Positions 4,303-62,375 of a DNA stretch of 64,000 nt are shown one piece after another. This DNA comes from a virus. Its lineage: Duplodnaviria > Heunggongvirae > Uroviricota > Caudoviricetes. Position 1 is the stretch's first letter, and each line of letters starts with the position of its first letter. A program made the translations under genes and the position numbers. The stretch lies in the IMG/VR virus record IMGVR_UViG_2939127364_000001; one strand, given 5' to 3'. The notes under the pieces are model-generated. The model was given only the letters and a program-made list of their open reading frames with translations, was not told where the DNA came from and ran no database searches.

Positions 4303-4660
4303 AACCTTTCTTCATCAACTCGCGTTTAATTTCATCGGTACGCATCGTGACATCGGCAGCAGTGATCGCCTCGTTCAGCTTCACGATGTCCTCGATTTCC
4401 TGCGGTGTCTTCTCCGCAAGATGGAAAATAGCAGCACGAATCACATCAGAGCGGGTGAATTTCTCAAAGCGAGGGATGAACTTCATCATCTCCAGCAGTT
4501 CGAAGTATTCGTCTTCCAGTGACATTGTGCGGCTTTTGATTTTCTCTTTGCCACGAGTCGGGCGTCCCTGTGGTCTGACTGGTTGGCGCAAAGGAGTTGT
4601 GTTCTTAGCCGGTGCATCAGGCTCTTTGCGCTTTGCTAGGTCTCCCATTCTCATGGACAT
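4301..4660 (-). CDS. Small partition partner protein (ParG/RHH-like centromere-binding candidate)
   Basis: 119 aa, basic N-terminus, immediately downstream of and overlapping parA by 1 nt. Confidence 0.45.
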   Translation of the reverse strand: MSMRMGDLAKRKEPDAPAKNTTPLRQPVRPQGRPTRGKEKIKSRTMSLEDEYFELLEMMKFIPRFEKFTRSDVIRAAIFHLAEKTPQEIEDIVKLNEAITAADVTMRTDEIKRELMKKG

Positions 4661-5325
4661 TATTCTTCCTCCAGACTCAAGATGTAATCTACAAACTCTT
4701 CGAACTCGGCTTCTGCCTTCTTATCGCGTTCAGCGCCAGTCATTTCAAAGATAGAACGACCTGCCTCTTCCGCATCGTCATAAACGTTACGGTTGTACAG
4801 GTTAACCGGCGCAGCCTCGATGCCGAAAGTTTCGACAATTTCCTTCGCGGCCAGAATACGTGATACCTGGGAAGGCAATGACGGACACTGGTTTATTACC
4901 GCGCGGATCTTAACTTTCTCGTTCACATTGCGAACGTTGTCGATAATCGGGTCGATATCACGCAGAGATTTCAAATCACGACGTTTAGGGCGCAGCGGGA
5001 TGATGATTACATCAGCCATAAGCATCGCCAGACGCTGAATTTCGGAGTCAAAGCCACCAGCATCTACCACTACAAACTCAGCTCTACCCTGAAGCGATTT
5101 TAGGTGCTTAATGATGTCATCCTGAACGTATGCAAAAGGAATCAGCTCAAGGTCTTCGTTCTGTCGACGGTCTTCACACCAGCTCGTTGTCGTGCGCTGA
5201 ATATCTATATCGGTAATATAAACCTTCTTCTTCTTTTTGACTTTCAGGCAAACGGCAATTTGCTGGGCAACGGTGGATTTGCCAGGCCCGCCCTTTGTGC
5301 CGCCAACCACAAAGATCTTGGTCAT
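4660..5325 (-). CDS. parA: ParA-family partition ATPase (small type Ib-like)
   Basis: 221 aa; deviant Walker A GGTKGGPGKST at the N-terminus; motif A 36 nt upstream. Confidence 0.75.
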   Translation of the reverse strand: MTKIFVVGGTKGGPGKSTVAQQIAVCLKVKKKKKVYITDIDIQRTTTSWCEDRRQNEDLELIPFAYVQDDIIKHLKSLQGRAEFVVVDAGGFDSEIQRLAMLMADVIIIPLRPKRRDLKSLRDIDPIIDNVRNVNEKVKIRAVINQCPSLPSQVSRILAAKEIVETFGIEAAPVNLYNRNVYDDAEEAGRSIFEMTGAERDKKAEAEFEEFVDYILSLEEE

Positions 5326-5604: not shown

Positions 5605-5913
5605 TTGATGGCCTTCCTACATCACGGCCATCAGGAGGAATACATGTCAGCACTAAAAAAGCAGCGCATCGATTTGAGATTAACCGATGACGATAAAAGC
5701 ATCATCGAGGAAGCTGCCGCAATGTCTAACCAGAGCATTACTCAGTTTATGGTTAGCAGTGCATCTGAACGTGCCGTGAAAGTTATAGAGCAACACCGTA
5801 GACTAGTTCTGAATGAAGAATCCTGGAATCTGGTTATGGACGCTATAAGCAATCCTCCGGCACCGAACGACAAGCTGAAACGAGCTGCTGATCGTCTGAA
5901 AAGCATGGAGTAG
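5605..5913 (+). CDS. DUF1778-type RHH antitoxin (AtaR/TacA-like)
   Basis: About 90-102 aa, ...KKQRIDLRLTDDDKSIIEEAA..., directly upstream of and 8 nt from a GNAT toxin-like gene; true start may be the internal ATG near 5644. Confidence 0.6.
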   Translation: MMAFLHHGHQEEYMSALKKQRIDLRLTDDDKSIIEEAAAMSNQSITQFMVSSASERAVKVIEQHRRLVLNEESWNLVMDAISNPPAPNDKLKRAADRLKSME

Positions 5914-5920
5914 TTTACTC

Positions 5921-6442
5921 GTGAGCAATACAACGATAGAGATTTTCTCTGGAGAGAAAGATTATGATCTAAACGGTTTTGATTGCGGCGAAGAGTCACT
6001 AAACGCCTTTTTAGCCAACCACTTAAAAAGGCAGCATGAGGGAAAAATTCTTCGTGCTTATGTGCTTTGCACTCAAGAAGAAAGGCCAAAAGTGTTAGGA
6101 TATTACACTTTGTCAGGTAGTTGTTTTGAAAAGGAGTCCTTACCTTCAAGAAGCAAACAAAAGAAGGTTCCTTATCGGAATGTTCCAAGTGTTACTTTGG
6201 GTAGGCTGGCTTTGGACAAGTCCCTTCAAGGTCAAGGATTTGGCTCAATGCTTGTAACACATGCAATGCGCGTTGTGTACAATGCATCTCTTGCTGTAGG
6301 CATTCATGGACTTTTCGTTGAGGCGTTAAATGACAAAGCCAAGGCGTTTTATAAAAGTTTAGACTTTATCCAGCTGGTTGGTAACAACGAGCGTTCTTTG
6401 TTCTATCCTACAAAATCTATCGAAAAATTGTTCGAAGAATAA
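5921..6442 (+). CDS. GNAT-family acetyltransferase toxin (AtaT/TacT-like)
   Basis: 173 aa, GTG start; GNAT core LGRLALDKSLQGQGFGSMLV; classic antitoxin-then-toxin arrangement. Confidence 0.65.
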   Translation: MSNTTIEIFSGEKDYDLNGFDCGEESLNAFLANHLKRQHEGKILRAYVLCTQEERPKVLGYYTLSGSCFEKESLPSRSKQKKVPYRNVPSVTLGRLALDKSLQGQGFGSMLVTHAMRVVYNASLAVGIHGLFVEALNDKAKAFYKSLDFIQLVGNNERSLFYPTKSIEKLFEE

Positions 6443-41079: not shown

Positions 41080-41358
41080 ATGAGCGAAAAGAAAACAACT
41101 TATTGCCAAGTGGCATTGTCTGATAAGGCCAATGAAAAACTTGGAAAATTTCAAATAAAACTCAAAGAGAAAAAAATCAAGATGTCTAAGGCTGAAGTTA
41201 TCAATGCCATTCTGGAGACGATGACTATGGCTGAATTTGACAAAGTCACATCTGCTGTTGGGGTTTCCGCTAAGACGCGTGAGAAAATCATGCGCATCTA
41301 TGAAAACTCCAATATGACAAAAAAAGATTTAGAGGAAATACTGAGCAGGTTGCCGTAA
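41080..41358 (+). CDS. Small hypothetical protein
   Basis: 92 aa, starts 3 nt after the helicase stop. Confidence 0.45.
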   Translation: MSEKKTTYCQVALSDKANEKLGKFQIKLKEKKIKMSKAEVINAILETMTMAEFDKVTSAVGVSAKTREKIMRIYENSNMTKKDLEEILSRLP

Positions 41359-42706: not shown

Positions 42707-43126
42707 ATGAAAGCAAAAAACTTAATGATTCTAATGCTAACCACGTCACTAATTGGGTGTTCGTCTTCGTCTATATCTATTTCAAAGGCAAAGGATGCAC
42801 CTCAAAGCAGAATATTTAAATATCAAACACCACATGAGTCTAGTCTAACAATAGTTCGAGACAAAGGGCTGGTTGGTTCTGCATGTAACGCTTCCATTTT
42901 CATCAATGGAGAAACGGCTGCAAAGCTAGAACCTGGTGAAAAAGCAACTTTCTACCTTAACGAAGGAGAGTGGATCGTTGGGACATCAATTGAAAGTTCA
43001 GGTCTTTGCGCATTTAACCCCTCCAGGATGGAACGAGAAATAAAGCTAAAGCAGGGCGACTCGAAAACATATCGGGTTTTCACTACCTGGGATGGTACAA
43101 TGGACATATTGCCAACCACTTTATAA
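42707..43126 (+). CDS. Lipoprotein (superinfection-exclusion candidate)
   Basis: 139 aa; signal peptide with lipobox LTTSLIGCSSS. Confidence 0.6.
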   Translation: MKAKNLMILMLTTSLIGCSSSSISISKAKDAPQSRIFKYQTPHESSLTIVRDKGLVGSACNASIFINGETAAKLEPGEKATFYLNEGEWIVGTSIESSGLCAFNPSRMEREIKLKQGDSKTYRVFTTWDGTMDILPTTL

Positions 43127-43130
43127 TGAT

Positions 43131-43652
43131 ATGACGACGAAAGACATCACCTACGGCATACCGGCTGAAGTCTGGCCGCGAGACTACGAACATGCAGAGC
43201 GCACCTTGCTCTTCTGGCGGAGTGCAAAATTTCCTGTAAGAGTCACTCTCGAAGACGGCCAAGTGTTTTGCATGTATGTCTACGGGCTATTGAGCGCAAG
43301 AAATAAGCTGAACCTCACACCAGATCCGCTTAGCAACACAAATCGTATAAGGCTCCCTCTTGAGCGCATTAGCACAATTGAGTCGGGCATAGAAGAGGTT
43401 GACACTTCATTCACAGGTCGACTAACGCTAAACAATGAACAGATGGTTAATCAGCCATCACGTCGTGACTTTTTTAAGATATGTCGTCAGGCTTACCAAA
43501 ACGGCAAATCTATAAGGGTCTACATGGCAGACGGTCGCGAAATTGAGGGAACGTCAGATGGCGTTGACGCCTGTCTAGTCACACTTAAGTTGGAAGACGG
43601 TAGAAAAATACTTATTTTCTTCGATTGGGTTGAACGAATCCTTCCGTTTTAA
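43131..43652 (+). CDS. Hypothetical protein
   Basis: Track ORF 43092..43652; start set at ATG 43131, just after the lipoprotein stop. Confidence 0.4.
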   Translation: MTTKDITYGIPAEVWPRDYEHAERTLLFWRSAKFPVRVTLEDGQVFCMYVYGLLSARNKLNLTPDPLSNTNRIRLPLERISTIESGIEEVDTSFTGRLTLNNEQMVNQPSRRDFFKICRQAYQNGKSIRVYMADGREIEGTSDGVDACLVTLKLEDGRKILIFFDWVERILPF

Positions 43653-43949: not shown

Positions 43950-44600
43950 ATGGCTAACATTATCATTTCTAAAAAATCCATCATTGAAGCTGCTGCCATT
44001 GTATCCGACGAGCTGCGCGAAAAAGCAGATCTGGCAACTCAAACATATAACGAACATTATAAAAATGGTACGCACACAAAAGCAGACAAAGCAAACATGC
44101 AAGCTGCGACCACTAAACTTGCTTACTTCATCAACAACGTTGTGAACGCAGTAGAAGACGAAAAATTATGCTCTGTTTTCTACTATGCGATCAAAGCAAG
44201 CAAACAAGCGCCAGAAGTATTTTTCCGTGATGCAATGACTAATAGTTATTCACTGGAAAAACTGGTCTATCTGGTCAAATCAATTAAAGCTGGAAAGTGT
44301 GTTTATTCCGTCGCTGATATGTCCGGATCTCGTGTATTCGCATTAATCGATATGATTAACGACGAGATCGACACGTTCACCAATGGCGCTGTTTTCGATT
44401 TAATGAATGAAGCGAAAAAAGCGTGCGAAATTAAATTGGACGCTGGCTATACTCAAGCCAACCAGTTGATCAATCTTTGCGAACGTCTTGGACTTGTTGA
44501 AAAAGTCAAAGGAGCTGGGAGCGCGAAAGCTGGTACTCAGCAATATCGCTTCATTAAAAATGATTTCTATAACTATCTGGCTGATGCTTTCAAAGCGTAA
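43950..44600 (+). CDS. Hypothetical protein (insulated single-gene unit)
   Basis: 216 aa; long AT-rich upstream region; RBS AAGGAA; terminator immediately downstream. Confidence 0.55.
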   Translation: MANIIISKKSIIEAAAIVSDELREKADLATQTYNEHYKNGTHTKADKANMQAATTKLAYFINNVVNAVEDEKLCSVFYYAIKASKQAPEVFFRDAMTNSYSLEKLVYLVKSIKAGKCVYSVADMSGSRVFALIDMINDEIDTFTNGAVFDLMNEAKKACEIKLDAGYTQANQLINLCERLGLVEKVKGAGSAKAGTQQYRFIKNDFYNYLADAFKA

Positions 44601-44878: not shown

Positions 44879-44884
44879 AATCGA

Positions 44885-44907
44885 GCGCCCACTATGGGCG
44901 CTTTTTT
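44885..44907 (+). terminator. Terminator hairpin GCGCCCACTATGGGCGC, copy 2
   Basis: Identical 17-bp hairpin followed by tttttt. Confidence 0.6.
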
Positions 44908-44931
44908 CGTTTCCAATACTTCCACCATAAC

Positions 44932-44954
44932 GCGCCAATGATGGCGCTTTTTTT
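44932..44954 (+). terminator. Third tandem terminator
   Basis: gcgcca-atga-tggcgc followed by ttttttt. Confidence 0.55.
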
Positions 44955-45330
44955 ATTGTCTTTGACTCACACCAACAACATAAAAATAAGCGCCAAAATA
45001 ACGCCATAGACGTGCTTTTATATCCTTACCAGTACATACCCATTACTTAGCGCATTAACGCGCTTAAATCGCGTTATATTGCGTTATGGTGTATGGTTAA
45101 TCATTGGCTTTTATTCTTGCTATGTGATCCGCGTTTAATTGTCGGCGCGGATCGACATTTTGTTTTGTTCCGTATCCGCTCGCGTATTATGTGCGCGTGA
45201 TTTTTCACATAATCACACCACTTAATCACATATGTGATTACGCTACGAAAGAAATCTGGATGTCTCAGGCGACGAAAGTCATCATAATTTTCCCCGCTCA
45301 CCTGTCCGACAACCGCTGGTTGGATTCCAC

Positions 45331-45491
45331 CAGCTTCCCGATGTTTTTTCTACATAAAGGCGAATGCAGCCGTTTCCCGAAAAAATCCTGGCCGTTTCCC
45401 GTCGGCTCATGAATACGTTCCTTGCCGTTTCTGAAAATTTCCCTGCGGCAGCTGGTGGCTATAGAGAAAGGGCCGTTTCTGGCCCTCTTCT
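45331..45491. repeat. Iteron-like cluster 1 (GCCGTTTC(C/T) repeats)
   Basis: 4-5 direct copies (cagccgtttcccg, ggccgtttcccg, tgccgtttctg, ggccgtttctgg), first two 22 bp apart; contains GCTGGTGG. Confidence 0.5.
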
Positions 45492-45494
45492 CAG

Positions 45495-45977
45495 TTACAC
45501 GCCATCAAGGATGTGGATGCGGTTGCTTGCGTATACATTCAGCATAAAGTTAGCGCAAAACAGTTTCCATGTATCAACGCCAGCGGTATACGTAATGTTT
45601 TTGCATTTAATTGCATTGTTGGCGATCCGCATCCCCTGCGATACTGCTTCATCGTCGGAAAATTTGAACGACGATTGAGTTTTAATCCAGACAGAAATCT
45701 GCGTAGCGAACTCAATCAGCTTGGACTGGCAGAATCGCCCGGAGCGCACCGGAAAGACGAACGTTCCGAATCCAGAATTTACCACATACGCTTTCTCAAA
45801 TACCCGCGAGTAACGACGATTGCAAATGATGTCGCGTGCAATAATGCATTTTTCTTGTGCTGACAGTTCTACCGTCTCATTGTCGCGCCATGCACCAAGT
45901 ACTCGTTTTTCAATGTCAGAGAACGTTACAGCGATATTGCCATGTGCGGGTGCGTTTACAGTAGCGATAAAATTCAT
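45495..45977 (-). CDS. Hypothetical early protein
   Basis: 160 aa; motif A 20 nt upstream of the ATG. Confidence 0.5.
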   Translation of the reverse strand: MNFIATVNAPAHGNIAVTFSDIEKRVLGAWRDNETVELSAQEKCIIARDIICNRRYSRVFEKAYVVNSGFGTFVFPVRSGRFCQSKLIEFATQISVWIKTQSSFKFSDDEAVSQGMRIANNAIKCKNITYTAGVDTWKLFCANFMLNVYASNRIHILDGV

Positions 45978-45996
45978 GATTAATTCCTTATCGTAA

Positions 45997-46013
45997 ATAA
46001 CAAATTGTTTTCT
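45997..46013. promoter_or_regulatory. Motif A upstream of 45495..45977
   Basis: ataacaaattgttttct. Confidence 0.4.
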
Positions 46014-46186
46014 TGTTGGCGTTAATTATCGTTGTACGAATAAGGCGTCAAAGTGGAAAGTTGCGGTAGCCGGACGGGAACAGGTGGGTTTGTCGGTTGC
46101 CTGGAGGTAAGAGGTTGGTGTTTTTAGCCTGCGGGAAACAGGATGGTCATTTAAGGCCACCAGCGTTAACTGGTGGCGTTTATCTC

Positions 46187-46777
46187 TCAGCGAGCAGATG
46201 AATAATATCCTTGAATTAGCTTTTCATCCACATACGGATACAGGAAGCGACGCGGGTTAGTTTGTCTGTGATTAAAAAAGTCTCTGTCATCGAAATATTG
46301 GGCACAATGATCATGGAATCCATGAATTGCATTAACAGCTAGTTCGCGGATGTCTTCATCTGTCTTGTCTGGTTTTGAATTGTACACATATATAGTAGGA
46401 TCAAGATCATACTCATTAATTGAGACTTCGACAAGTGCGTCTGGCTCTTCGCCAAACTGCTCAAGCCAAAAAAATCTTGTCATTTTCTCGTTGTGTAAAG
46501 ATGCCACTCCATAAAAATCCATTGGGAAACGAGTTTTAAGATCGCCATTCAGAATCTCTTCATCTGGCTCTTTTTCTACAATGTAAACATCCTTAGTTTT
46601 GATATACTCCACCATAGGATTAACCATTTTTAATTTTGCGTTCCAAAAATCTTCTTCTTTTTTGCGCATTTCTTCTTCTGCTTGCTGAAACTCTGCTTCT
46701 GCGGATTTCATTTCTTTCATAGTCTGTCCATATACTTCGTACAGTTCATTGGTTTTTTTCTCTAAATCAATGCTCAT
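46187..46777 (-). CDS. Hypothetical early protein
   Basis: 196 aa, acidic, coiled-coil N-terminus; half-site TTGTTTTC upstream. Confidence 0.5.
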   Translation of the reverse strand: MSIDLEKKTNELYEVYGQTMKEMKSAEAEFQQAEEEMRKKEEDFWNAKLKMVNPMVEYIKTKDVYIVEKEPDEEILNGDLKTRFPMDFYGVASLHNEKMTRFFWLEQFGEEPDALVEVSINEYDLDPTIYVYNSKPDKTDEDIRELAVNAIHGFHDHCAQYFDDRDFFNHRQTNPRRFLYPYVDEKLIQGYYSSAR

Positions 46778-47060
46778 TTTTAATTCCTCGTTTGTTTTCG
46801 ATGTGATAATTATCGCTGAATGAAATAGGCTAAAAAGAAGATTTATAAGGCTACTATCTGGAAGTAAGGCAAAGTGTTGTCATTTAAGGCCACCAATGCT
46901 GATGGCCTTAATAATTATCGCACGATTACGCTAAGGATCTTTTCCTCAACTGATTTGTTGTTGCGACTAAACTGCCTTGCGTATCTGATGACAGAAGAGG
47001 CGTTTTGCTTTCTGACCATCTCGGCTCTTTCCTTCAGGCGTTTCTTGAAATCGCCCATAT

Positions 47061-47477
47061 TTACCACCAGGCGCAGAAGGTCAGTCTGTTATTGTGAAAG
47101 TCGTGGTTCTTAATCAGATCTTCCACAAGCTCTTTCAACTGCCCCACATCATGCCAGTAACCTTCATCGTACTCCTGACTGCCGAAGAAAAAACCTTCCC
47201 GGGTAGGCAAGTACTCTTCGCAATTACTTTCGTTTATGTGCATCAAATGAGCCTTCAGAAAACAAATGTCATTCATCGTTAATTCTAAAAGCTCACAATT
47301 TTCGACTTCACCTACGTTGCGCTCCATCCACCCAACGAGCGCATTGAACTTACGGAAGTAAGCAACCTGCTTTCTGGATGCCTCGTTATTCAGATCGTTT
47401 TTAGGCTGTGTCTCGATATAGATATCAAGTCCCATGATGGTTTCCTTATTAAGTTGCTTCAGTGAAATCATTTTCAC
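47061..47477 (-). CDS. Hypothetical early protein
   Basis: 138 aa, GTG start; motif A 15 nt upstream. Confidence 0.5.
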   Translation of the reverse strand: MKMISLKQLNKETIMGLDIYIETQPKNDLNNEASRKQVAYFRKFNALVGWMERNVGEVENCELLELTMNDICFLKAHLMHINESNCEEYLPTREGFFFGSQEYDEGYWHDVGQLKELVEDLIKNHDFHNNRLTFCAWW

Positions 47478-47491
47478 AAATCAGATAAGGC

Positions 47492-47508
47492 AGAAAACAA
47501 ATTGTTAT
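47492..47508. promoter_or_regulatory. Motif A upstream of 47061..47477
   Basis: agaaaacaaattgttat. Confidence 0.4.
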
Positions 47509-47552
47509 CGGGCATAAGAAAATGGCGCGGTTTACGCGCCATTCAAAGAGGA

Positions 47553-47948
47553 TTAAGCGAATACGCTTTCAGGGATTAAGGTGTCAGCAGGAATGCCGGA
47601 GGTAATGCGCAGGCCGTACTGACCAATCCAGGTAGTGTTGGTATTCAGGTTGGAGGCGAATACGGTGTTAACCATATTCATCATTGGTTCAAACACCTCT
47701 TCATCAACCTGGCGGAAGTAGTTCTCGATTTTCAGCAGCAGCGGGTCAGTTGCATCGAAAATAGACTGGTATTGAGTCGCGTACTCGCCGTCGGAGTCAT
47801 CACCTTTACGCACGATCGTACTGGCCTGTACTTCGGCGCCAGTTTCGGTGTTGTACGTAACAACGGTGATTTTTGCCACATTCTTACCTTCGGCGGTTTC
47901 AGAGGCATAGTAAACATCAACTGTCAGTTTTTCGCGTTTAATGGTCAT
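47553..47948 (-). CDS. Hypothetical protein
   Basis: Track ORF extends to 48014; ATG at 47948 is preceded by GGAGAG and lies downstream of a terminator and motif B. Confidence 0.45.
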   Translation of the reverse strand: MTIKREKLTVDVYYASETAEGKNVAKITVVTYNTETGAEVQASTIVRKGDDSDGEYATQYQSIFDATDPLLLKIENYFRQVDEEVFEPMMNMVNTVFASNLNTNTTWIGQYGLRITSGIPADTLIPESVFA

Positions 47949-47990
47949 TTCACTCTCCGTAGTGTATTGGTTATTTTTATATTCTATGAT

Positions 47991-48008
47991 CGTAAGTATG
48001 TACTTACA
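47991..48008. promoter_or_regulatory. Motif B near-palindrome
   Basis: cgtaagtatgtacttaca. Confidence 0.35.
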
Positions 48009-48011
48009 ATA

Positions 48012-48040
48012 CAAAAAAGCCCCGTAAGGATGGCGGGGCT
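48012..48040 (-). terminator. Rho-independent terminator (- strand)
   Basis: agccccg-...-cggggct followed by TTTTTT in - sense. Confidence 0.55.
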
Positions 48041-48074
48041 GTCGTACTGTCGACTAATTACCACTTGCACATTA

Positions 48075-48386
48075 TCAGGCTATTGCCATCACTGATGCTC
48101 TCTGAATCTCTTGCTGGGCCACGCGGTTAACTTCCATCAAAGCCAGTTCGAGCTGATGTTCCGGCCACATTCTTTGAAATGCCATCCAGCCTTTTCCACG
48201 CTGGCGACGAACATTCATTACATAACGAGTAAAGGTGTTTTTATCGAAAGACACCGCTGTTTCACGGAACAGACGAATAGAAGTTCCATTGGCAACGATG
48301 TCCAGGAAAGTTAATTGAGCAACCAGTGCAGGCTTCTCTTTTCTCTTCTGGTCTTTGTCCAGACCAAGAACCAATGATTTTTTCAT
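48075..48386 (-). CDS. Hypothetical early protein
   Basis: Track ORF begins with TTG at 48416 inside motif A; the ATG at 48386 is preceded by GGAG and by motif A. Confidence 0.5.
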   Translation of the reverse strand: MKKSLVLGLDKDQKRKEKPALVAQLTFLDIVANGTSIRLFRETAVSFDKNTFTRYVMNVRRQRGKGWMAFQRMWPEHQLELALMEVNRVAQQEIQRASVMAIA

Positions 48387-48396
48387 TACAACTCCG

Positions 48397-48413
48397 TAAA
48401 CGACTTGTTTTCT
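48397..48413. promoter_or_regulatory. Motif A upstream of 48075..48386
   Basis: taaacgacttgttttct. Confidence 0.4.
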
Positions 48414-48499
48414 CAATGGCGTAAATAATACCAGTAAGAAAACGGCTACAAAGCATATTGATCAGGTGCATGAGCGATATGCAGGTTCCTCCCTGCGGC

Positions 48500-48529
48500 T
48501 ATAGAGAAATTAAGCCAGCAATGCTGGCT
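48500..48529 (-). terminator. Terminator after 48540..48869 gene
   Basis: agccagc-aat-gctggct followed by a U-rich stretch in - sense. Confidence 0.45.
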
Positions 48530-48539
48530 TTGGTTAGGT

Positions 48540-48869
48540 TTACTCGAATACTTCAAGAAACTCCTGAACGTCCCAGTGCTGGACGAGGTGAAGATAGACC
48601 TTAGAAATAACGTCATTTTCGCTATCGCATGTGAAGTAGTACTTCTGGCTGCGGTTGTATGTGTCCACACAAAATTCGCTCATATCCATAAAGTCAGCAT
48701 CTTCACCCATGTCGCAAATCATCAAAGCAGGTGCGTCATCACGAGTCATCAGCTCAAGCACCCACCGCGAATTGATCAGAGTGGAAGACCAACCTTCCAG
48801 CTCATAGAACTGGTCAAACTCTTTTTGAGTCAATTTCTTGATTTGGTTGATGTCGATATTTGCAAACAT
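48540..48869 (-). CDS. Hypothetical early protein
   Basis: Track start 48890 overlaps motif A; the internal ATG at 48869 is more plausible. Confidence 0.5.
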   Translation of the reverse strand: MFANIDINQIKKLTQKEFDQFYELEGWSSTLINSRWVLELMTRDDAPALMICDMGEDADFMDMSEFCVDTYNRSQKYYFTCDSENDVISKVYLHLVQHWDVQEFLEVFE

Positions 48870-48880
48870 AAAGCAATCCT

Positions 48881-48897
48881 TAAACAACATGTTTTCT
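48881..48897. promoter_or_regulatory. Motif A upstream of 48540..48869
   Basis: taaacaacatgttttct. Confidence 0.4.
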
Positions 48898-49230
48898 TGA
48901 TGGTGTTATTATCGCAATAACGCACAGGCGAAAAAGGATTTTATTCCGGTGAATGTGGTTTTGGCAGTGAGTTTTCAGGTTCAGTACCGAGTACACTTTT
49001 TACATTATTCTGATTTAGTGGCCGAAGGTGGCTGGTGGGCAGAATAATCCTCTCCCCGAAAACCTACTGAAATCGATTGTGACCCGTTGGCTGTCTGGCA
49101 CAATTACGCTGTAACTGGGCATTCAGAGGGAATCCAGCGGTAAGTAAGTTCGCCTGCACGTGAGCGCCTCTCTTCTTCCCGCACATTACAGGTGGGTAGC
49201 CGCAACTCTCCCTATCGCTATACCGGTACG

Positions 49231-49372
49231 CCGCCGTTCCTGAACCGGCATCGAGCCTTTTCCCGAAATCCACACAGGCAACTCGACCGTTTCCCTGAAA
49301 ATCCCCAGCCGTTCCCCGAAGGCAACCCAGCCGTTTCTGTAGCGGGATGCAGCCTTTTCCCTGTATGGACCG
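49231..49372. repeat. Iteron-like cluster 2: six direct repeats at ~22-bp spacing
   Basis: Units starting near 49233, 49254, 49286, 49308, 49329 and 49351 (gccgttcc, agccttttcc, accgtttcc, agccgttcc, agccgtttc, agccttttcc); intervals 21, 32, 22, 21, 22. Confidence 0.55.
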
Positions 49373-49479
49373 AAGGCTAACCGTAGGGGTGTTACGGGGG
49401 ATAAAATCAGGAGTTGAATAAATACGAAAAAGGAGGCGACACCCCTCCTTCCCTCCCCACTTATACATACCTGTCTTGT

Positions 49480-50330
49480 TCGCTATACATGTTGTGTTTT
49501 CTTCGTGTTTTATCTGTCTCAACCTCTCTATAGGCGTTAATGCTCACTCCTTCCAGAATGTTCTATACGGCGACTATTTCTGTTGGTGAATTGGGTGTGT
49601 CGTTCTCTCTGTCGGTGTAAATGGTTTCGTTCGTTTTGCGGTGGTTCTTCTGTGGGGTGTTCTCGTCGTTTTGGTGATTGTTCTTCTCCGTCTATGGAGT
49701 AATGGCAGGTGGGCGATTCCTTTCGTTATTGTGTTTGAGTTGTTTGTCTGGAGTGTGTGAAAGGCTTTTGTAGTTATTCGTGTATTGGGTAATGGCGTTT
49801 CCCGTGATTGTTATGTTTCGTGTCTTTTGGGATTGAGAGAAACCTTGCGGTTACAGGCTTCGTTGGGGTTTCAGTGATTCTGGTGTTTCTTCGCTGTTTG
49901 GGTAATGGCGTGTCGTGGGTATCGCGCGTATGAATGTTTTCGGATTGCCTGTGAAAGTTAGGTTGGTTGTCCGGTAGCCTGGGAAGAAGAGGTGGGTCTT
50001 TTCGGTAGCCTGCCATAAAGAGGTTGGTTGTTTTGGGGAATGACATGTGTGTTATTTAGTTGTTTTGTTATGCCTGAAAATAAGTTGTTTATATGGTTGT
50101 GTAACGCAACGGGAACGATTTTGAGCGTGTGTTTTTGTTGGTAGTGTGTTGGATCGTCTGTGGTGAAAATTGGACGCTGTGGCGCTGTCTGCTGCGTAGA
50201 ATTACGGGTATAAGCAGTGATGTGTGAAAACGTCAATTTTTTAGACCAAATCGGGTGAAAGCGTTGATGTTTCGTTGATCTGTTATTCAGTTGTTTTCTT
50301 ATTGGTATAAACAACTATAACCTATTGATA
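49480..50330. other. GT-rich strand-asymmetric, apparently non-coding tract (~0.85 kb)
   Basis: + strand G+T about 80% by eye; no credible ORF on either strand; internal direct repeats (cggtagcctg... at 49972 and 50002; gtaatggc three times). Confidence 0.5.
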
Positions 50331-50433
50331 TTTAAGGATGTGATTGCAGGTATAGAATGGGGGTAGTGGCGATCAACGGATTCTTATAGAAAAGAATCAA
50401 ATTGTGACCGCCATTATCAATGAGTTGCAACCG

Positions 50434-51838: not shown

Positions 51839-53872
51839 TTACTTAACCTGGTGGCCTGGTTTAGCACCAGCATCCGGGCTTAACAGGAAGATATCTTTCC
51901 CGCCGGGGCCAGCAGCCATCACCATGCCTTCGGAGATACCGAAGCGCATTTTACGCGGAGCCAGGTTAGCCACCATAATGGTGTGACGACCAATCAGTGC
52001 CTGTGGGTCTGGATAAGCAGAACGGATGCCTGAGAAGACATTACGCTTTTCACCACCGAGATCCAGTGTCAGACGCAGCAGTTTGTCAGAACCTTCGACA
52101 AACTCCGCGTTTTCAATCAGCGCCACACGCAGGTCAACTTTGGCGAAGTCGTCAAAGGTGATGGTTTCCTGAATCGGGTCGTCAGCCAGTGGGCCAGTTA
52201 CCGGTGCAGCTGTGGCTTTCACTTCTTCTTTGGATGCTTCCACCAGTGCTTCCACCTGTTTCATATCGATACGGTTATACAATGCCTTGAACGGATTCAC
52301 TTTATGGCCCAGCAGCGGTTGCTGGATACCATCCCAGGTCAGTTCTGTATTCAGGAATGCTTCTGCACGTTCAGTCAGTTTCGGCAGTACCGGTTTCAAG
52401 TACGTCATCAGCACGCGGAACAGGTTAATGCCCATAGAGCAAATCGCCTGCAGATCGGCATCGCGTCCTTCCTGCTTCGCCACCACCCACGGAGCCTGTT
52501 CATCGACATATCGGTTAGCCAGGTCAGCCAATGCCATGATTTCACGGATAGCTTTACCAAATTCGCGGCTTTCCCATGCTTCGCCAATCACTTCAGCGGC
52601 ATCAGTAAAGGTTTTGTACAGTTGCGGGTCAGCCAGTTCGCTTGCCAGCACGCCGTCAAAACGCTTGTTGATAAAGCCTGCATTACGGGAGGCCAGGTTA
52701 ACCACTTTGTTCACGATATCGGCATTCACGCGCTGAACGAAATCCTCCAGGTTGAGATCGATATCATCAATGCGCGAAGAGAGTTTCGCAGTGTAGTAGT
52801 AACGCAGGCTGTCGGCGTCAAAATGATTCAGCCAGGTGCTGGCTTTAATAAAGGTGCCGCGAGACTTGGACATCTTCGCGCCGTTCACCGTCACATAGCC
52901 GTGAACAAACAGGTTGGTCGGCTTGCGGAAGTTGCTGCCTTCCAGCATGGCAGGCCAGAACAGGCTGTGGAAGTAAACAATATCTTTACCGATGAAGTGG
53001 TACAGCTCGGCTGTGGAGTCTTTCTTCCAGTATTCATCGAAGCTGGTGGTATCGCCGCGCTTGTCGCACAGATTCTTGAAGGAACCCATGTAGCCAATCG
53101 GCGCGTCCAGCCAGACGTAGAAATATTTGCCCGGCGCGTTCGGAATTTCAAAACCGAAGTAAGGCGCATCGCGGGAGATATCCCACTGTTGCAGGCCGGA
53201 TTCAAACCACTCCTGCATTTTGTTCGCCACCTGCTCCTGCAACGCACCGCTGCGGGTCCATGCCTGCAACATTTCGCTGAAAGAGGGCAGATCAAAGAAG
53301 AAGTGTTCGGAATCACGCATTACCGGGGTAGCGCCAGAAACCACCGATTTCGGCTCGATCAATTCAGTCGGGCTATATGTTGCGCCGCAGACTTCACAGT
53401 TATCGCCGTATTGATCTGGCGCTTTACATTTCGGGCAGGTGCCTTTCACAAAACGATCCGGCAGGAACATGCCTTTTTCCGGGTCGTACAACTGAGAGAT
53501 AGTGCGGTTTTTAATAAAACCGTTCTCTTTCAGGCGAGTATAGATAAGCTCAGACAGCTGGCGGTTCTCTTCGCTGTGCGTCGAGTGATAGTTGTCATAG
53601 CTGATGTTAAAGCCTGCGAAATCAGTCTGGTGTTCCTGACTCATTTCGCCAATCATCTGCTCCGGTGTGATACCAAGCTGCTGTGCTTTCAGCATGATCG
53701 GCGTACCGTGGGCATCGTCGGCACAGATGAAATTAACCTCGTGGCCGCGCATTCGCTGGTAACGAACCCAGACATCAGCCTGGATGTGCTCCAGCATATG
53801 GCCGAGGTGGATTGAGCCGTTAGCGTACGGCAGCGCGCACGTCACCAGAATTTTCTTCGCGACTTGGGTCAT
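51839..53872 (-). CDS. metG: Methionyl-tRNA synthetase
   Basis: 677 aa from [26 protein letters not shown] (HIGH-type motif), KMSKS present, C-terminal ...KPGHQVK; start set at ATG 53872 rather than the upstream-extended track ORF. Confidence 0.95.
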
Positions 53873-54029
53873 AGTAGGCATTACTTCTTTGTAGTGAAAA
53901 GGGGCTTGATAGTAACAAAATGGCCTTATGTCTGCCATGTGATAACAGCATTTCTCATAAATGATTAAATGTCGTAGCTGGAGTACACTACAAGGCGACA
54001 ATTGCGCAAATTAAAATAAAGGAGACGGG

Positions 54030-55130
54030 ATGAGCGAGTCCAAATCGCCGGATGCCCTGAGAGCAATGGTAGCCGGTACGCTGGCTAATTTTCAGCACCC
54101 AACCCTGAAACACAACCTGACTACGCTTAAAGCGTTACACCATGTTGCGTTGATGGATGACACACTGCATGTCGAACTAATCATGCCTTTCGTGTGGAAT
54201 AAGCCTTTTGAAGACCTGAAAGAGCAATGTAGTGGTGATCTGCTCCGTATCACTGGCGCAAAGGCTATTGACTGGAAGCTGTCGTACAACATTGCCACGC
54301 TTAAGCGCGTCAAAAACCAACCAGGCATTAATGGCGTTAAGAACATTATCGCCGTCAGCTCAGGCAAGGGCGGCGTGGGTAAATCCTCCACGGCGGTAAA
54401 CCTGGCACTGGCGTTGGCTGCTGAAGGTGCGAAAGTTGGTATTTTGGATGCCGATATCTATGGTCCATCAATTCCAACCATGCTGGGCGCGGAAAACCAA
54501 CGTCCAACCTCACCTGACGGTACTCACATGGCACCTATCATGTCTCATGGCCTGGCAACCAACTCTATTGGTTATCTGGTCACCGACGACAATGCAATGG
54601 TGTGGCGTGGACCGATGGCCAGCAAGGCGCTGATGCAGATGTTGCAGGAAACTCTATGGCCTGATCTGGACTATCTCGTTCTCGATATGCCGCCGGGCAC
54701 TGGTGATATTCAGTTGACGCTGGCGCAGAACATTCCTGTAACTGGTGCGGTTGTGGTAACTACGCCGCAAGACATCGCGCTGATCGATGCGAAGAAAGGC
54801 ATTGTGATGTTCGAAAAAGTCGAAGTGCCGGTACTGGGTATCGTCGAAAACATGAGTGTGCATATTTGCAGTAACTGCGGTCATCACGAGCCAATTTTTG
54901 GCACCGGTGGCGCACAGAAACTGGCCGAGAAATACAACACGCAGTTGTTAGGCCAAATGCCACTTCATATCTCTCTTCGTGAAGATCTGGATAACGGAAC
55001 ACCAACCGTTATTAGTCGTCCAGATAGCGAATTTACGGCTATTTATCGTGACCTCGCAGATCGCGTTGCCGCCCAAATGTATTGGCAAGGTGAAGTAATA
55101 CCTGGCGAAATCGCATTCCGCGCAGTGTGA
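54030..55130 (+). CDS. apbC: Fe-S cluster carrier ATPase ApbC/Mrp
   Basis: 366 aa; P-loop SGKGGVGKSS; CxxC motif ICSNCGHH; divergent from metG as in E. coli. Confidence 0.9.
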   Translation: MSESKSPDALRAMVAGTLANFQHPTLKHNLTTLKALHHVALMDDTLHVELIMPFVWNKPFEDLKEQCSGDLLRITGAKAIDWKLSYNIATLKRVKNQPGINGVKNIIAVSSGKGGVGKSSTAVNLALALAAEGAKVGILDADIYGPSIPTMLGAENQRPTSPDGTHMAPIMSHGLATNSIGYLVTDDNAMVWRGPMASKALMQMLQETLWPDLDYLVLDMPPGTGDIQLTLAQNIPVTGAVVVTTPQDIALIDAKKGIVMFEKVEVPVLGIVENMSVHICSNCGHHEPIFGTGGAQKLAEKYNTQLLGQMPLHISLREDLDNGTPTVISRPDSEFTAIYRDLADRVAAQMYWQGEVIPGEIAFRAV

Positions 55131-56258: not shown

Positions 56259-57821
56259 ATGAAAATGACAAGTATTCAACAACGTGCAGAGCTTCATCGC
56301 CAGATCTGGCAAATTGCTAACGATGTCAGGGGTTCAGTCGATGGATGGGATTTTAAGCAGTACGTTTTGGGCGCGCTTTTTTACCGTTTTATCAGCGAAA
56401 ATTTTTCCAGTTATATTGAAGCCGGTGATGACAGTATCTGTTATGCGAAACTGGATGACAGCGTAATTACTGATGACATTAAAGACGATGCCATCAAAAC
56501 TAAAGGCTACTTCATCTACCCCAGTCAGCTTTTCTGCAACGTAGCTGCGAAAGCAAATACTAATGACAGACTGAATGCAGATTTAAACAGCATCTTCGTT
56601 GCTATCGAAAGTTCTGCTTACGGTTATCCTTCAGAAGCTGACATCAAAGGTTTGTTTGCTGATTTCGATACCACCAGTAACCGCCTGGGTAACACCGTTA
56701 AAGATAAAAATGCCCGCTTGGCTGCGGTTCTGAAAGGGGTTGAAGGGCTAAAACTTGGTGACTTCCATGAACATCAGATTGACCTGTTCGGTGACGCCTA
56801 TGAGTTCCTGATTTCTAACTATGCGGCGAATGCCGGTAAGTCCGGCGGCGAGTTCTTTACACCGCAGCACGTCTCTAAGCTGATTGCACAACTGGCTATG
56901 CACGGGCAGACCCACGTTAACAAAATCTACGACCCGGCAGCAGGCTCCGGTTCGCTGTTGTTGCAGGCGAAAAAACAGTTTGATGACCATATCATCGAAG
57001 AAGGTTTTTTTGGTCAGGAAATCAACCATACGACCTATAACCTGGCGCGTATGAACATGTTTTTGCACAACATCAACTACGACAAGTTTGATATCAAGCT
57101 GGGTAATACACTGACTGAGCCGCACTTCAGAGATGAAAAACCGTTTGATGCCATCGTTTCTAACCCGCCGTATTCGGTGAAATGGATTGGCAGCGATGAC
57201 CCGACGCTGATTAACGATGAACGTTTTGCCCCGGCTGGCGTTCTGGCCCCCAAATCCAAAGCTGACTTTGCGTTTGTATTACATGCGCTGAACTATCTTT
57301 CGGCCAAAGGTCGCGCTGCGATTGTCTGCTTCCCAGGCATTTTTTACCGTGGCGGCGCGGAGCAGAAAATCCGTCAGTATCTGGTCGACAATAACTATGT
57401 CGAAACCGTGATTTCACTGGCACCGAATCTGTTCTTTGGCACCACTATTGCCGTCAATATTCTGGTGCTGTCTAAACATAAAACGGATACCAAAGTTCAG
57501 TTTATTGATGCCAGCGAACTGTTCAAAAAAGAGACTAACAACAACATTCTGACCGATGCTCATATCGAACAGATTATGCAGGTATTTGCCAGCAAGAAAG
57601 ATGTTGCTCATCTGGCGAAATCTGTTGCGTTTGAGACTGTTGTCGCGAATGACTATAACCTGTCGGTGAGCAGCTATGTGGAAGCGAAAGATACTCGCGA
57701 AATTATCGATATCGCTGAGCTGAATGCTGAGCTGAAAACCACGGTCAGCAAAATCGACCAGTTGCGTAAAGATATTGATGCGATTGTTGCTGAGATTGAA
57801 GGTAGCGAGGTACAGGCATGA
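56259..57821 (+). CDS. hsdM: Type I restriction-modification system methyltransferase subunit
   Basis: 520 aa; N6-adenine MTase motif [12 protein letters not shown]; SAM-binding region; N-terminus [17 protein letters not shown]. Confidence 0.9.
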
Positions 57822-59137
57822 GCGAGCTGAGTTATCTGGAAAAACTGCTGGATGGGGCTGAGGTTGAGTGGGTAGCATTAAATAAATTAGCAACTTTTTT
57901 AAAAGGGAAGTCTTTACCTAAAGAAAAAATAACTCCAGATGGCAATAGATATTGTATTCATTACGGTGAGCTTTTCACTCATTATGGTCCCATAATTGAC
58001 AAAGTATGCTCAAAAACAAACCAAGCAATCAATGAGTCAATTCTATCTGAAAAAAATGATGTTCTAATGCCAACGTCAGACGTTACACCAAGAGGTTTGG
58101 CTACAGCTAGTTGCATTCAAGAAAGTGGCGTTATTTTAGGCGGCGATATTTTGATTATTAGATGCTCTGGTGTTGATGGTAGATATCTAAGTAATTTCAT
58201 AATAAATAACAAAAAAAAGATATTGCAAATGGTTAAAGGTTCTACTGTTTATCATTTGTATGCTAAAGATATAGGTAAATTACTTATCCCCATCCCTTGC
58301 CCCAACAACCCGGAAAAGTCGCTGGCTATCCAGTCTGAAATCGTCAGGATTCTGGATAAATTTACTGCACTTACCGCTGAGCTTACCGCTGAGCTTAGCA
58401 TGCGTAAAAAACAATACAACTACTATCGCGACCAGTTGTTGAGTTTTGATGATGAGCAGGAAAAACCTATTTATCTGGAAAAATTGCTGGATGGGGTTGA
58501 GGTTGAGTGGTTGCCATTGGGGAAACTAGGTGAATTAGTTCGTGGAAATGGATTGCCTAAGTCTGATTTTACCGAATCTGGGGTTCCTGCCATACACTAT
58601 GGTCAGATATATACTTTTTACGGATTATCTACTGAAACAACAAAGTCATTTGTTTCCCATGAAACGGCGAAGAAGCTTAAAAAGGTTAACTCTGGTGATG
58701 TTGTTATTACTAACACAAGCGAAAATTTTACTGATGTTGGTAAGGCGCTTGTTTATCTAGGTAAAGAGCAAGCTGTTACTGGTGGCCATGCAACTATTTT
58801 TAAGCCAAATAGCACTATTATTGGGAAATACTTTGCCTATTTCACGCAAACGGATTCTTTTGCAAATGGGAAAAGGAAATACTCCAAGGGAACTAAAGTA
58901 ATTGATGTGTCTGCATCGGATATGGCGAAAATTATTATCCCTATCCCCTGTCCGGAAAATCCGGAAAAATCCCTTGCCATTCAGTCTGAAATCGTTCGGA
59001 TTCTGGATAAATTCGACACCCTGACTAACTCCATCACCGAAGGTCTCCCGCGTGAAATCGAGTTGCGCCAGAAACAATACGAATACTACCGTGATTTACT
59101 GTTCAGTTTCCCAAAACCTGAAACTGTCAGTAATTAA
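57818..59137 (+). CDS. hsdS: Type I restriction-modification specificity subunit (type IC-like architecture)
   Basis: 439 aa; two AT-rich target-recognition regions separated by GC-richer conserved repeats ([23 protein letters not shown]... and [23 protein letters not shown]...); central TAELTAEL. Confidence 0.9.
58370..58396 (+). repeat. Tandem 12-bp repeat (cttaccgctgag x2) in hsdS central conserved region
   Basis: Encodes TAEL-TAEL; copy number of this repeat distinguishes EcoR124I from EcoR124II specificity. Confidence 0.7.
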
Positions 59138-59258
59138 TTGACCATTGCTACCGACCGGGCCACCTTAACACCCGGTCAGTATATAGACTATTTTTTTACG
59201 CGCCGGAAGCCCCCTTAACTCCCTTCCGGCCCTTGCCAGACGGCACAAAGGATGCGCT

Positions 59259-62200
59259 ATGACTCATCAAACACATACCATTGCTGAATCCAATAACTTT
59301 ATCGTTCTTGATAAGTACATCAAAGCTGAGCCAACAGGCGACAGCTACCAGAGCGAATCGGACCTGGAACGTGAACTGATTCAAGACCTGCGGAATCAGG
59401 GCTATGAATTTATTTCGGTAAAATCACAGTCAGCGATGCTGACCAACGTTCGGGAACAGCTTCAGAGCCTCAATGGTGTGGTGTTTAATGACAGCGAGTG
59501 GCGGCGTTTCACGGAGCAGTATCTGGACAACCCGAGCGATGGCATTCTGGATAAGACCCGTAAAATCCATATCGACTATATTTGCGACTTTATTTTTGAT
59601 GACGAGCGACTTGAGAACATCTATTTGATAGATAAAAAGAATCTCATGCGCAATAAGGTGCAGATTATCCAGCAGTTTGAACAGACGGGTTCTCATGCTA
59701 ACCGTTATGACGTCACGATCCTGGTTAATGGCTTACCACTGGTACAAATCGAACTGAAAAAGCGCGGCGTGGCGATTCGTGAGGCTTTCAACCAGATACA
59801 TCGTTACAGTAAAGAGAGTTTTAACAGCGAAAACTCCCTGTTTAAGTATCTGCAACTGTTTGTCATTTCTAACGGCACCGATACCCGTTATTTTGCCAAC
59901 ACAACAAAGCGCGATAAAAACAGTTTTGACTTCACCATGAACTGGGCGAAATCAGACAACACGCTGATTAAAGACCTCAAAGATTTTACCGCTACCTTTT
60001 TCCAGAAACATACTCTGCTTAATGTTCTGGTGAACTACAGCGTTTTTGACAGCAGTCAGACGCTACTGGTGATGCGACCGTACCAGATTGCTGCCACCGA
60101 GCGCATTCTGTGGAAAATTAAGAGCTCCTTTACAGCGAAGAACTGGTCAAAACCGGAAAGCGGAGGGTATATCTGGCACACTACCGGTTCTGGTAAAACC
60201 CTCACCAGCTTTAAAGCCGCGCGTCTGGCAACAGAGCTGGACTTTATTGATAAAGTCTTCTTCGTGGTCGACAGGAAAGACCTCGATTACCAGACCATGA
60301 AGGAATATCAGCGTTTTTCGCCAGACAGCGTCAACGGCTCGGAAAATACCGCAGGCCTTAAACGAAATCTGGATAAGGACGATAACAAAATTATCGTCAC
60401 CACTATTCAGAAACTTAATAACCTGATGAAAGCAGAAAGCGACCTGCCTGTATACAATCAGCAAGTGGTGTTTATATTTGATGAATGTCACCGCAGCCAG
60501 TTTGGAGAAGCGCAGAAAAACCTGAAGAAGAAATTCAAACGCTATTATCAGTTTGGTTTTACCGGCACACCTATTTTCCCGGAAAACGCCTTAGGCTCAG
60601 AAACGACCGCCAGCGTATTTGGTCGTGAATTGCATTCGTATGTAATTACCGATGCGATTCGTGATGAAAAAGTGCTCAAATTCAAGGTGGACTACAACGA
60701 TGTGCGGCCACAGTTTAAATCTTTAGAGACAGAAACCGACGAGAAAAAACTGAGTGCGGCTGAAAATCAGCAGGCATTTCTTCATCCCATGCGTATACAG
60801 GAAATTACGCAATATATTCTGAATAACTTCCGCCAGAAGACCCACCGTACTTTCCCAGGTTCCAAAGGCTTTAATGCCATGCTGGCAGTGAGTAGCGTGG
60901 ATGCCGCGAAAGCCTATTACGCGACGTTTAAACGGTTACAAGAGGAAGCAGCTAATAAATCGGCTACCTATAAACCGCTGCGTGTTGCAACAATCTTCTC
61001 CTTTGCCGCCAATGAAGAACAAAATGCCATTGGTGAAATTTCCGATGAAACTTTTGATACCAGCGCAATGGACAGCAGTGCTAAAGAGTTTCTTGACGCT
61101 GCAATTCGTGAGTATAACAGCTATTTTAAAACTAACTTCAGCACCGACAGTAACGGTTTTCAGAACTACTATCGTGATTTAGCCCAACGGGTTAAAAATC
61201 AGGATATCGATCTGTTAATTGTCGTTGGGATGTTTTTAACCGGCTTCGACGCTCCAACATTGAACACGCTATTCGTCGATAAAAACTTGCGTTTTCACGG
61301 CCTGATGCAGGCATTCTCCCGTACCAACCGCATTTATGACGCTACTAAAACCTTCGGTAACATCGTCACTTTTCGGGATCTGGAACGCTCAACCATTGAT
61401 GCCATAACGCTGTTTGGTGATAAAAATACTAAAAATGTGGTGTTAGAAAAGAGTTATGCTGAGTATATGGAAGGCTTTACAGATGCTGCCACTGGTGAAG
61501 CTAAACGCGGCTTTATGGCAGTAGTTTCAGAACTGGAACAACGGTTCCCTGACCCTGCCAGTATTGAAAGTGAAAAAGAGAAGAAAGACTTCGTAAAACT
61601 GTTTGGTGAATACCTGCGTGCCGAGAACATCCTGCAAAACTATGATGAATTTGCCACGCTGAAAGCCCTGCAACAAATCGATCTTAGCGATCCTGTTGCG
61701 GTAGAAAAATTCAAAGCAGAACATTATGTGGATGATGAAAAGTTCGCTGAATTGCAAACAATTCGTCTCCCTGCTGAACGCAAGATTCAGGATTATCGTT
61801 CTGCCTATAACGATATTCGCGACTGGCAGCGCCGTGAGAAAGAAGCTGAGAAAAAAGAGAAATCAACCACTGACTGGGATGACGTAGTTTTTGAGGTCGA
61901 TTTGCTGAAGTCTCAGGAAATAAACCTGGATTATATCCTTGGACTGATTTTCGAACACAACAGACAAAATAAAGGCAAGGGCGAAATGATCGAAGAGGTC
62001 AAACGCTTAATTCGTTCAAGCCTGGGGAACCGGGCGAAAGAGGGCCTGGTGGTCGATTTTATTCAGCAAACGAACCTGGATGATTTACCAGACAAAGCCA
62101 GTATCATTGAGGCATTCTTTACGTTTGCTCAACGCGAACAGCAACGTGAAGCAGAAGCATTGATAAAAGAAGAAAATCTCAATGAAGAGGCGGCGAAACG

Positions 62201-62375
62201 CTATATTCGCACGTCTTTAAAACGCGAATACGCCACCGAAAATGGCACAGAATTAAACGAGACATTACCAAAACTTAGTCCGTTAAACCCGCAATATAAA
62301 ACGAAAAAACAGACCGTTTTCCAGAAAATCGTCACGTTTATTGAAAAGTTCAAAGGAGTAGGTGGGCAGATATAG
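59259..62375 (+). CDS. hsdR: Type I restriction enzyme endonuclease/translocase subunit
   Basis: 1038 aa; helicase motifs TGSGKT and DECHRSQ; own transcription unit 120 bp after hsdS; M-S-R gene order as in type IC systems. Confidence 0.9.

Follow-up and report, generated by a model that had tools for sequence, protein, structure and literature searches.

Two conserved direct-repeat arrays at the borders of the early small-gene block of SSU5-like phage-plasmids

We analysed a 64,000-nucleotide stretch of a tailed-phage genome (IMG/VR record IMGVR_UViG_2939127364_000001; 'the window' below is this whole stretch) and found a block of early small genes bracketed by two non-coding arrays of a short same-strand direct repeat, GCCGTTTCCC, which are genuine and unique in the genome. 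Comparison with related SSU5-like phage-plasmids indicates that the arrays, cluster 1 to the left of the block and cluster 2 to its right, are under purifying selection. We tentatively read them as duplex-DNA sites that would be bound by p216, an orphan protein encoded near cluster 1, and that would control transcription at the borders of the block; we give this reading a probability of about 0.45. A sequence-only reading of the window had called the repeats iteron-like and taken them to suggest plasmid-type replication control.

Two repeat arrays and their conservation

In both clusters the repeat word, read on the minus strand, is YNG-GRAAMGG-CTGG. The pattern GCCKTTYCYS had 10 matches in the 64 kb, against 1.63 +/- 1.2 in dinucleotide shuffles (none of 100 shuffles reached 10), and nine of the ten copies fell within the two clusters. 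A weight matrix built from relatives gave 11 sites in the window, of which the clusters account for 9, and across the entire 108-kb genome of Escherichia phage Cyrano clusters of the motif occurred at these two places alone. Cluster 2 had been described as six direct repeats with one 32-bp step; all six copies are present on the same strand, with spacings of 22, 31, 22, 22 and 22 bp, the long step thus being one base pair shorter. For cluster 1, where four to five copies had been proposed, we found three solid ones, spaced 22 and 33 bp apart. The two further copies are doubtful: the one at 45472 is the loop of a minus-strand terminator hairpin (45462-45490), and the one at 45331 (CAGCTTCCCGA) matches weakly and belongs to an arm of an inverted repeat in which there is also a Chi octamer. 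A lone extra copy of the motif, in the same orientation as the clustered copies, lies within the p113 gene at 48190-48197 and is found at the same place in Cyrano, in PhiR41_1 and in two Klebsiella relatives.

Both clusters are non-coding. An open reading frame (ORF) that runs over cluster 2 (49064..49522, minus strand) is annotated as a 'hypothetical protein' in Cyrano (CYRAN_104) and in SSU5 (SSU5_109). Its frame is broken in PhiR41_1 by deletion of one 22-bp unit and it contains a terminator, and we therefore rejected it as a gene, the call being probably spurious. Likewise rejected was a 50-codon plus-strand ORF over cluster 1, which showed no conservation outside the Escherichia coli lineage. 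Public records leave the arrays unannotated or under spurious 'hypothetical protein' genes, and no account of the repeats turned up in the literature that could be searched; a paper on IncpKPHS1 describes iterons only next to repA.

Over positions 45000-49600 the window is 97.9% identical to Cyrano, the pLF82 phage-plasmid of E. coli LF82, and other SSU5-like phage-plasmids match as well, identifying it by sequence as a member of this group. We collected relatives through the gene for p160 (160 aa, phrog_1641), which served as an anchor and yielded 77 IMG/VR loci at 67–99% identity; homologues of the same gene were present in 803 PLSDB plasmids from Klebsiella, Escherichia, Enterobacter, Yersinia, Salmonella and others. 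For further comparisons we used three lineages (L207, L211 and L212), Klebsiella oxytoca pCAV1015-111 (L208) and Yersinia pestis pMT1 (L209). A search of genome contigs for any three-copy pattern of the motif returned matches dominated by unrelated tandem repeats.

Nearly all of the 77 loci have both clusters, on the same strand as one another and as the small genes. Tallied across loci, the spacings fall into a few classes, namely 22 bp (259 times), 31 bp (41), 33/34 bp (66) and 48 bp (32), the last of these corresponding to the terminator-loop copy. Cluster 1 keeps its 33/34-bp and 22-bp spacings in nearly all loci, and phage SSU5 has exactly the architecture of the window, including the 22/31/22/22/22 series, which also recurs in many of the 77 loci. 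Copy number ranges from 3 to 6 and changes by whole 22-bp units, the distance between the clusters ranges from 1.4 to 4 kb, and the minimal order of the block is cluster 2, p113, p160, terminator, cluster 1. In the alignments, conservation follows the columns of the motif; spacer sequences, flanks, copy number and enclosed genes all differ between loci. The core of the motif is conserved in the 77 loci, SSU5, pMT1, pCAV1015-111 and two deeper lineages. The direct repeats that the earlier reading saw are thus borne out as conserved arrays of a type recognised by sequence-specific proteins, with a core that persists as its surroundings drift. The principal features of the region are collected in Table 1.

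Table 1. Coordinates of the two arrays and of the features around them (window positions)
Feature	Position	Strand	Remarks
FljA-family protein (PF03614)	43092..43652	+	Predicted tandem Sm/Hfq-like fold; rival candidate binder, at the RNA level
p216	43950..44600	+	Orphan; predicted N-terminal helical bundle and C-terminal winged helix; candidate array binder
Inverted repeat, left arm	45327..45338		Contains CCACCAGC, Chi on the minus strand
Cluster 1	45369..45433	-	Three solid direct copies, plus-strand starts 45369, 45391, 45424; orientation as cluster 2
Inverted repeat, right arm	45447..45458		Contains GCTGGTGG, Chi on the plus strand
Terminator-type hairpin	45462..45490	-	Ends the small-gene operon; read from sequence; loop has motif-like AGAAAC/GGAAAC
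p160 (phrog_1641)	45495..45977	-	Last gene of the bracketed operon; anchor for relatives
p113 (phrog_5125)	48075..48416	-	Near-universal gene of the bracketed block
Promoter-like element	49077..49104	+	TTGTGA-N16-CACAAT, with TG ahead of the -10 hexamer; directed rightward, into cluster 2
Cluster 2	49233..49361	-	Six direct copies, plus-strand starts 49233, 49255, 49286, 49308, 49330, 49352
Invariant block beside cluster 2	49380..49453		G runs 49386-49389 and 49396-49400; AT-rich TTGAATAAATACG; hairpin
Strand-skewed non-coding stretch	49530..50340		About 800 bp directly beyond cluster 2; plus strand G/T-rich

Setting of the arrays and candidate binding proteins

Cluster 1 is enclosed by terminators. 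The hairpin that ends the small-gene operon lies on one side of it, with a stem that shows compensatory changes across lineages (the motif-like sequence of its loop is absent in the L207 lineage), and four plus-strand terminator-like hairpins lie on the other, at 44883-45197, so that cluster 1 should be shielded from read-through in both directions. Cluster 2 stands ~130–260 bp downstream of the rightward promoter-like element, whose hexamers are kept while its 16-bp spacer, ending in TGG, varies. This element was present in 51 of 66 loci, 135–140 bp from the last repeat, and of the 54 occurrences of its pattern in 1.8 Mb, 51 were at this position; in SSU5 it was not found by the pattern that we used. 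For the leftward operon below cluster 2, a consensus sigma-70 promoter was not found on the gene strand of two other lineages, which fits a factor-dependent promoter.

On its far side cluster 2 is followed by the invariant block, in which a hairpin (49427-49453) forms a terminator for minus-strand transcripts, and then by the strand-skewed stretch. On the plus strand of this stretch the GC skew is +0.4 to +0.5 and the AT skew -0.3 to -0.6; its minus strand is C/A-rich and nearly devoid of G and T. Other lineages share the skew, with L207 and pCAV1015-111 instead being A/G-rich on the gene strand. We found no conserved ORF in the stretch, in which the ORFs translate to low-complexity strings that match no family. 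The stretch may serve as a long non-coding RNA, as a platform for Rho or Hfq, or as a zone of R-loop formation.

Several observations favour a role of the arrays at the level of DNA over one at the level of RNA. Searches of Rfam returned no relevant match for the arrays at E <= 1, folding of the arrays was no better than that of shuffled sequences (z of -0.95 for the minus strand and +1.86 for the plus strand), and the covariation term of the consensus fold computed by alifold, -0.86, gave almost no covariation support. We therefore rejected a structured or sponge RNA resembling CsrB or RsmZ. The shielding of cluster 1 by terminators on both sides likewise points to DNA, and the fact that spacer lengths (22, 31 and 33/34 bp) are kept even though spacer sequences have diverged fits proteins bound side by side on the duplex.

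The near-universal neighbours of the arrays are p113, p153, p160, p216, the FljA-family protein, p92 and UvsW, and searches of the block genes against Pfam, PHROGs, NCBIfam and PDB sequences gave nothing informative. Among these neighbours we favour p216, whose gene lies 0.8 kb to the left of cluster 1, as the best candidate binder, judging from its predicted fold and its distribution. The matches to its winged helix include those of Cdc6/ORC, its likeness to TubR is no better than that to MarR or ArsR, and a BFVD fold search with p216 gave nothing significant. Its family is tiny and confined to these elements, with 102 close relatives and, in a hidden Markov model search of 1.84 billion representative sequences, 23 relatives. 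The putative recognition helix, (Y/F)TQxxQ, persists in relatives as distant as 31% identity, just as the core of the DNA word does. In L211 and L212, where p160 and p113 are not detectable, repeats of the motif type still come after a p216-like gene in the same convergent gap, and L212 lacks both an FljA-like and a p92 gene at the syntenic position. Conversely, in a decaying chromosomal remnant of an SSU5-like region (L086; E. coli chromosome CP125919.1, 386–397 kb), the p216 and UvsW genes are in fragments and cluster 1 has eroded, with the FljA-like gene intact. Another possible binder is p92 (41080-41358; 92 aa), which is near-universal just after the UvsW-like helicase and has an N-terminus that by eye resembles a ribbon-helix-helix, with no match in Pfam; its Cyrano homologue, CYRAN_117, is listed among the genes expressed in the lysogen (PMC9928086).

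From these observations we infer that the arrays act in cis through a 12–13-bp recognition word read in double-stranded DNA, on which an element-encoded, sequence-specific protein, most probably p216, would sit, several molecules loading side by side on each array. Control of transcription would be the outcome, with the arrays serving as operator or roadblock sites at both borders of the early small-gene block. Cluster 2 would act between the conserved rightward promoter and the skewed non-coding stretch, upstream of the leftward small-gene operon, and cluster 1 where that operon ends convergently, in a gap insulated by terminators; looping might also let the two arrays communicate. Such an arrangement has precedents. 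In lambda, OL and OR are two clusters of sites 2–4 kb apart that bracket a gene block and engage in long-range looping, and the operators of P2-type C repressors are direct repeats at 22-bp spacing. Like these operators, the adjacent sites described here are about two helical turns apart; unlike them, they are asymmetric, with as many as six in an array, and the gene for the annotated lysogeny repressor (the CYRAN_45 homologue) lies elsewhere.

Three points weigh against control of transcription by p216. We found no promoter that overlaps the repeat sites, another departure from the lambda and P2 operators. The deep lineages keep the core of the motif and not the 22-bp spacing (24/10/26 in L207, 36/28 in pCAV1015-111 and 19/39/16/49 in L211), and these spacings are not strictly in helical phase. 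Finally, the co-occurrence of p216 with the arrays is circumstantial because almost all loci are syntenic.

Replication control and other explanations

The same-strand spacing of ~22 bp had suggested plasmid-type replication control, and in several respects the arrays do resemble the iterons of theta plasmids such as P1, F and RepFIB, in which oriR and incA flank repA: the repeats lie on the same strand at ~22 bp, form two clusters that flank genes, and vary in copy number by whole units. The plasmid replicon of these elements nevertheless appears to lie elsewhere. In Cyrano, RepA (CYRAN_63) is encoded ~34 kb from cluster 2, at a position that falls outside the window, and repA is flanked on both sides by iterons spaced 21 bp apart (CTCTATAGTGGWT), with TGTGGATAA DnaA boxes and runs of GATC, which by sequence is a RepFIB/P1-type oriR/incA layout. 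The repA-flanking repeats are unrelated in sequence to GCCGTTTCCC, and we therefore rejected the motif as a RepA iteron. In Y. pestis pMT1, an IS1541 insertion (5856-6314 of the locus) has taken the place of the cluster 2 region and of most small genes of the block, with cluster 1 intact and p160, p216 and the FljA-like gene still present, and pMT1 is maintained as an IncFIB plasmid despite this loss. With the RepA origin ~34 kb away, a plasmid that persists without cluster 2, and a 22-bp spacing that is lost in deep lineages, the proposal of plasmid-type replication control is not supported.

The sequence around the arrays also departs from that of iteron origins. Next to the clusters there is no DnaA box that is conserved and no pronounced AT-rich unwinding element; cluster 2 is a local maximum of GC content (0.55–0.59), and the sole DnaA-like word, AAATCCACA at ~49270, is lineage-specific. 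Although the copies recur on one strand at ~22 bp, just 12–13 bp of each unit is conserved. No Rep initiator with paired winged helices is encoded beside the repeats: the look for a Rep-family fold among the adjacent orphan proteins, which the sequence-only reading had recommended, turned up the winged helix of p216 beside cluster 1, with no Rep-like two-domain fold. The cumulative GC skew of Cyrano gives a monotonic curve that is uninformative. The ParA gene, at 4660..5325, is 40 kb from the arrays, and we found no direct-repeat centromere adjoining it.

A plasmid origin located elsewhere makes a separate lytic origin plausible, as in P1, where the lytic origin is distinct from the plasmid origin, and the arrays might then be iterons of a second, lytic or auxiliary, origin recognised by an initiator other than RepA, such as p216. 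This we consider unlikely. The direct repeats at 22 bp in two clusters 1.4–4 kb apart, the adjacent winged-helix protein with matches to Cdc6/ORC, the insulation of cluster 1 from transcription and, in L211, an AT-rich stretch adjoining the array would all suit an origin; that p216 has no Rep-like two-domain fold and that an unwinding element is missing speak against one. In a variant of this explanation, rightward transcription from the conserved promoter would cross cluster 2 and the invariant G runs and enter the skewed stretch, where an R-loop would prime replication, with the p216-bound array as gate and cluster 1 as a second cis site. The ~800 bp of plus-strand GC skew fit such priming, and the annotation of Cyrano lists homologues of UvsW, UvsY, gp32 and RNase H. 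In T4, these four proteins act on R-loop origins. The A/G-rich composition of the non-coding stretch on the gene strand in L207 and pCAV1015-111 argues against the variant, and we regard an R-loop-primed lytic origin of SSU5-type phage-plasmids as doubtful. The role that it gives to cluster 1 would parallel crr of the satellite phage-plasmid P4, where ori and crr are two clusters of short direct repeats, a few kb apart, bound by the alpha primase-helicase. The arrays share with P4 the two separated short-repeat clusters a few kb apart on one replicon; they differ in that the nearest candidate here is a small winged-helix protein that has no enzymatic domain.

Two further explanations invoke other partners. 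Salmonella FljA binds the leader of fliC mRNA, and the arrays could be RNA sites through which the neighbouring FljA-family protein controls the translation or stability of the transcripts that carry them. Cluster-1 site 2 (45393-45413, minus strand) indeed shares a 12-nt identity, TGAGCCGACGGG followed by GAAAC, with the fliC 5′ leader of E. coli MG1655. The leader sequence was verified, but the match is confined to the element's E. coli lineage and fails the weight matrix, under which the best score in the fliC region was 5.6 as against 14–24 for the sites; this tells against mimicry of an FljA target, and the identity may be a coincidence. An RNA role also sits poorly with the terminators that isolate cluster 1 on both strands, with the motif-like sites of L212, where an FljA-like gene is missing, and with the chromosomal remnant in which that gene has stayed intact as the array decays, and we think it improbable. 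Partition is far less probable still. Here the arrays would form a centromere (parC, parS or tubC-like) on which a TubR-like p216 or another binder pairs with a segregation NTPase; as in TubR/tubC and other winged-helix centromeres, a winged-helix protein accompanies ~12-bp direct-repeat arrays in two groups. Unlike those systems, the arrays have no TubZ- or ParA-type motor next to them: neither the bracketed block nor its immediate surroundings encode an NTPase, ParA is encoded 40 kb away, and the gene called 'MinD' (54030..55130) is of the Mrp/NBP35 type and lies next to a host-like metG. The absence of cluster 2 from pMT1 is a further argument against a centromere. Control of transcription through p216 remains the reading that we prefer, at the probability given above.

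Neighbouring features and significance

The left part of the window encodes a DnaB-like helicase, a type Ib ParA and toxin-antitoxin genes, as assigned by protein-family scans and the annotation of Cyrano, and further rightward come structural and terminase genes, two ParB_N proteins with an ABC-type ATPase, and the UvsW-like helicase. After the repeat region lie a host-like metG/mrp pair and a type I restriction system. The pair (51839-55130) comprises a full-length methionyl-tRNA synthetase gene beside the gene for a divergent Mrp/NBP35-type ATPase, which is 'MinD' in the Cyrano annotation. The metG and mrp genes adjoin in E. coli, and the two are probably captured host genes, not a partition system. 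The restriction-modification system (56259-62375) is complete, with hsdM, hsdS and hsdR; it is not listed at the corresponding place in the Cyrano annotation and is an accessory insertion in the present element.

Around cluster 1, the two inverted-repeat arms are complementary at 11 of 12 bases, and both of the Chi octamers that they contain (45327-45334 and 45451-45458, in opposite orientation) are kept in 49 of 65 loci. The element as a whole is rich in Chi, with 17 copies in 64 kb against ~2 expected. The gap to the left of cluster 1 (45204-45240) holds the direct repeats CACATAATCACA and CACTTAATCACA and a perfect palindrome, TAATCACATATGTGATTA; TGTGATTAT, from the same region, recurs in other lineages, and these elements could be an operator or a leftward-reading extended -10 promoter. 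In pCAV1015-111, a second repeat family, TTTGGGAAGG, is present in four copies ~20–25 bp apart at ~6210-6290 of the locus, in the non-coding stretch upstream of that plasmid's cluster 2.

SSU5-like phage-plasmids are widespread in clinical Enterobacteriaceae and include Y. pestis pMT1 and elements of the S. Typhi pHCM2 type, and beyond RepA and ParA there has been essentially no study of how they are controlled. Finding the protein that binds the arrays would give an orphan protein family a function, and its identity would reveal either the switch of a variable early block devoted to host takeover or a lytic origin. Either outcome would provide a handle for curing, engineering or typing these elements.

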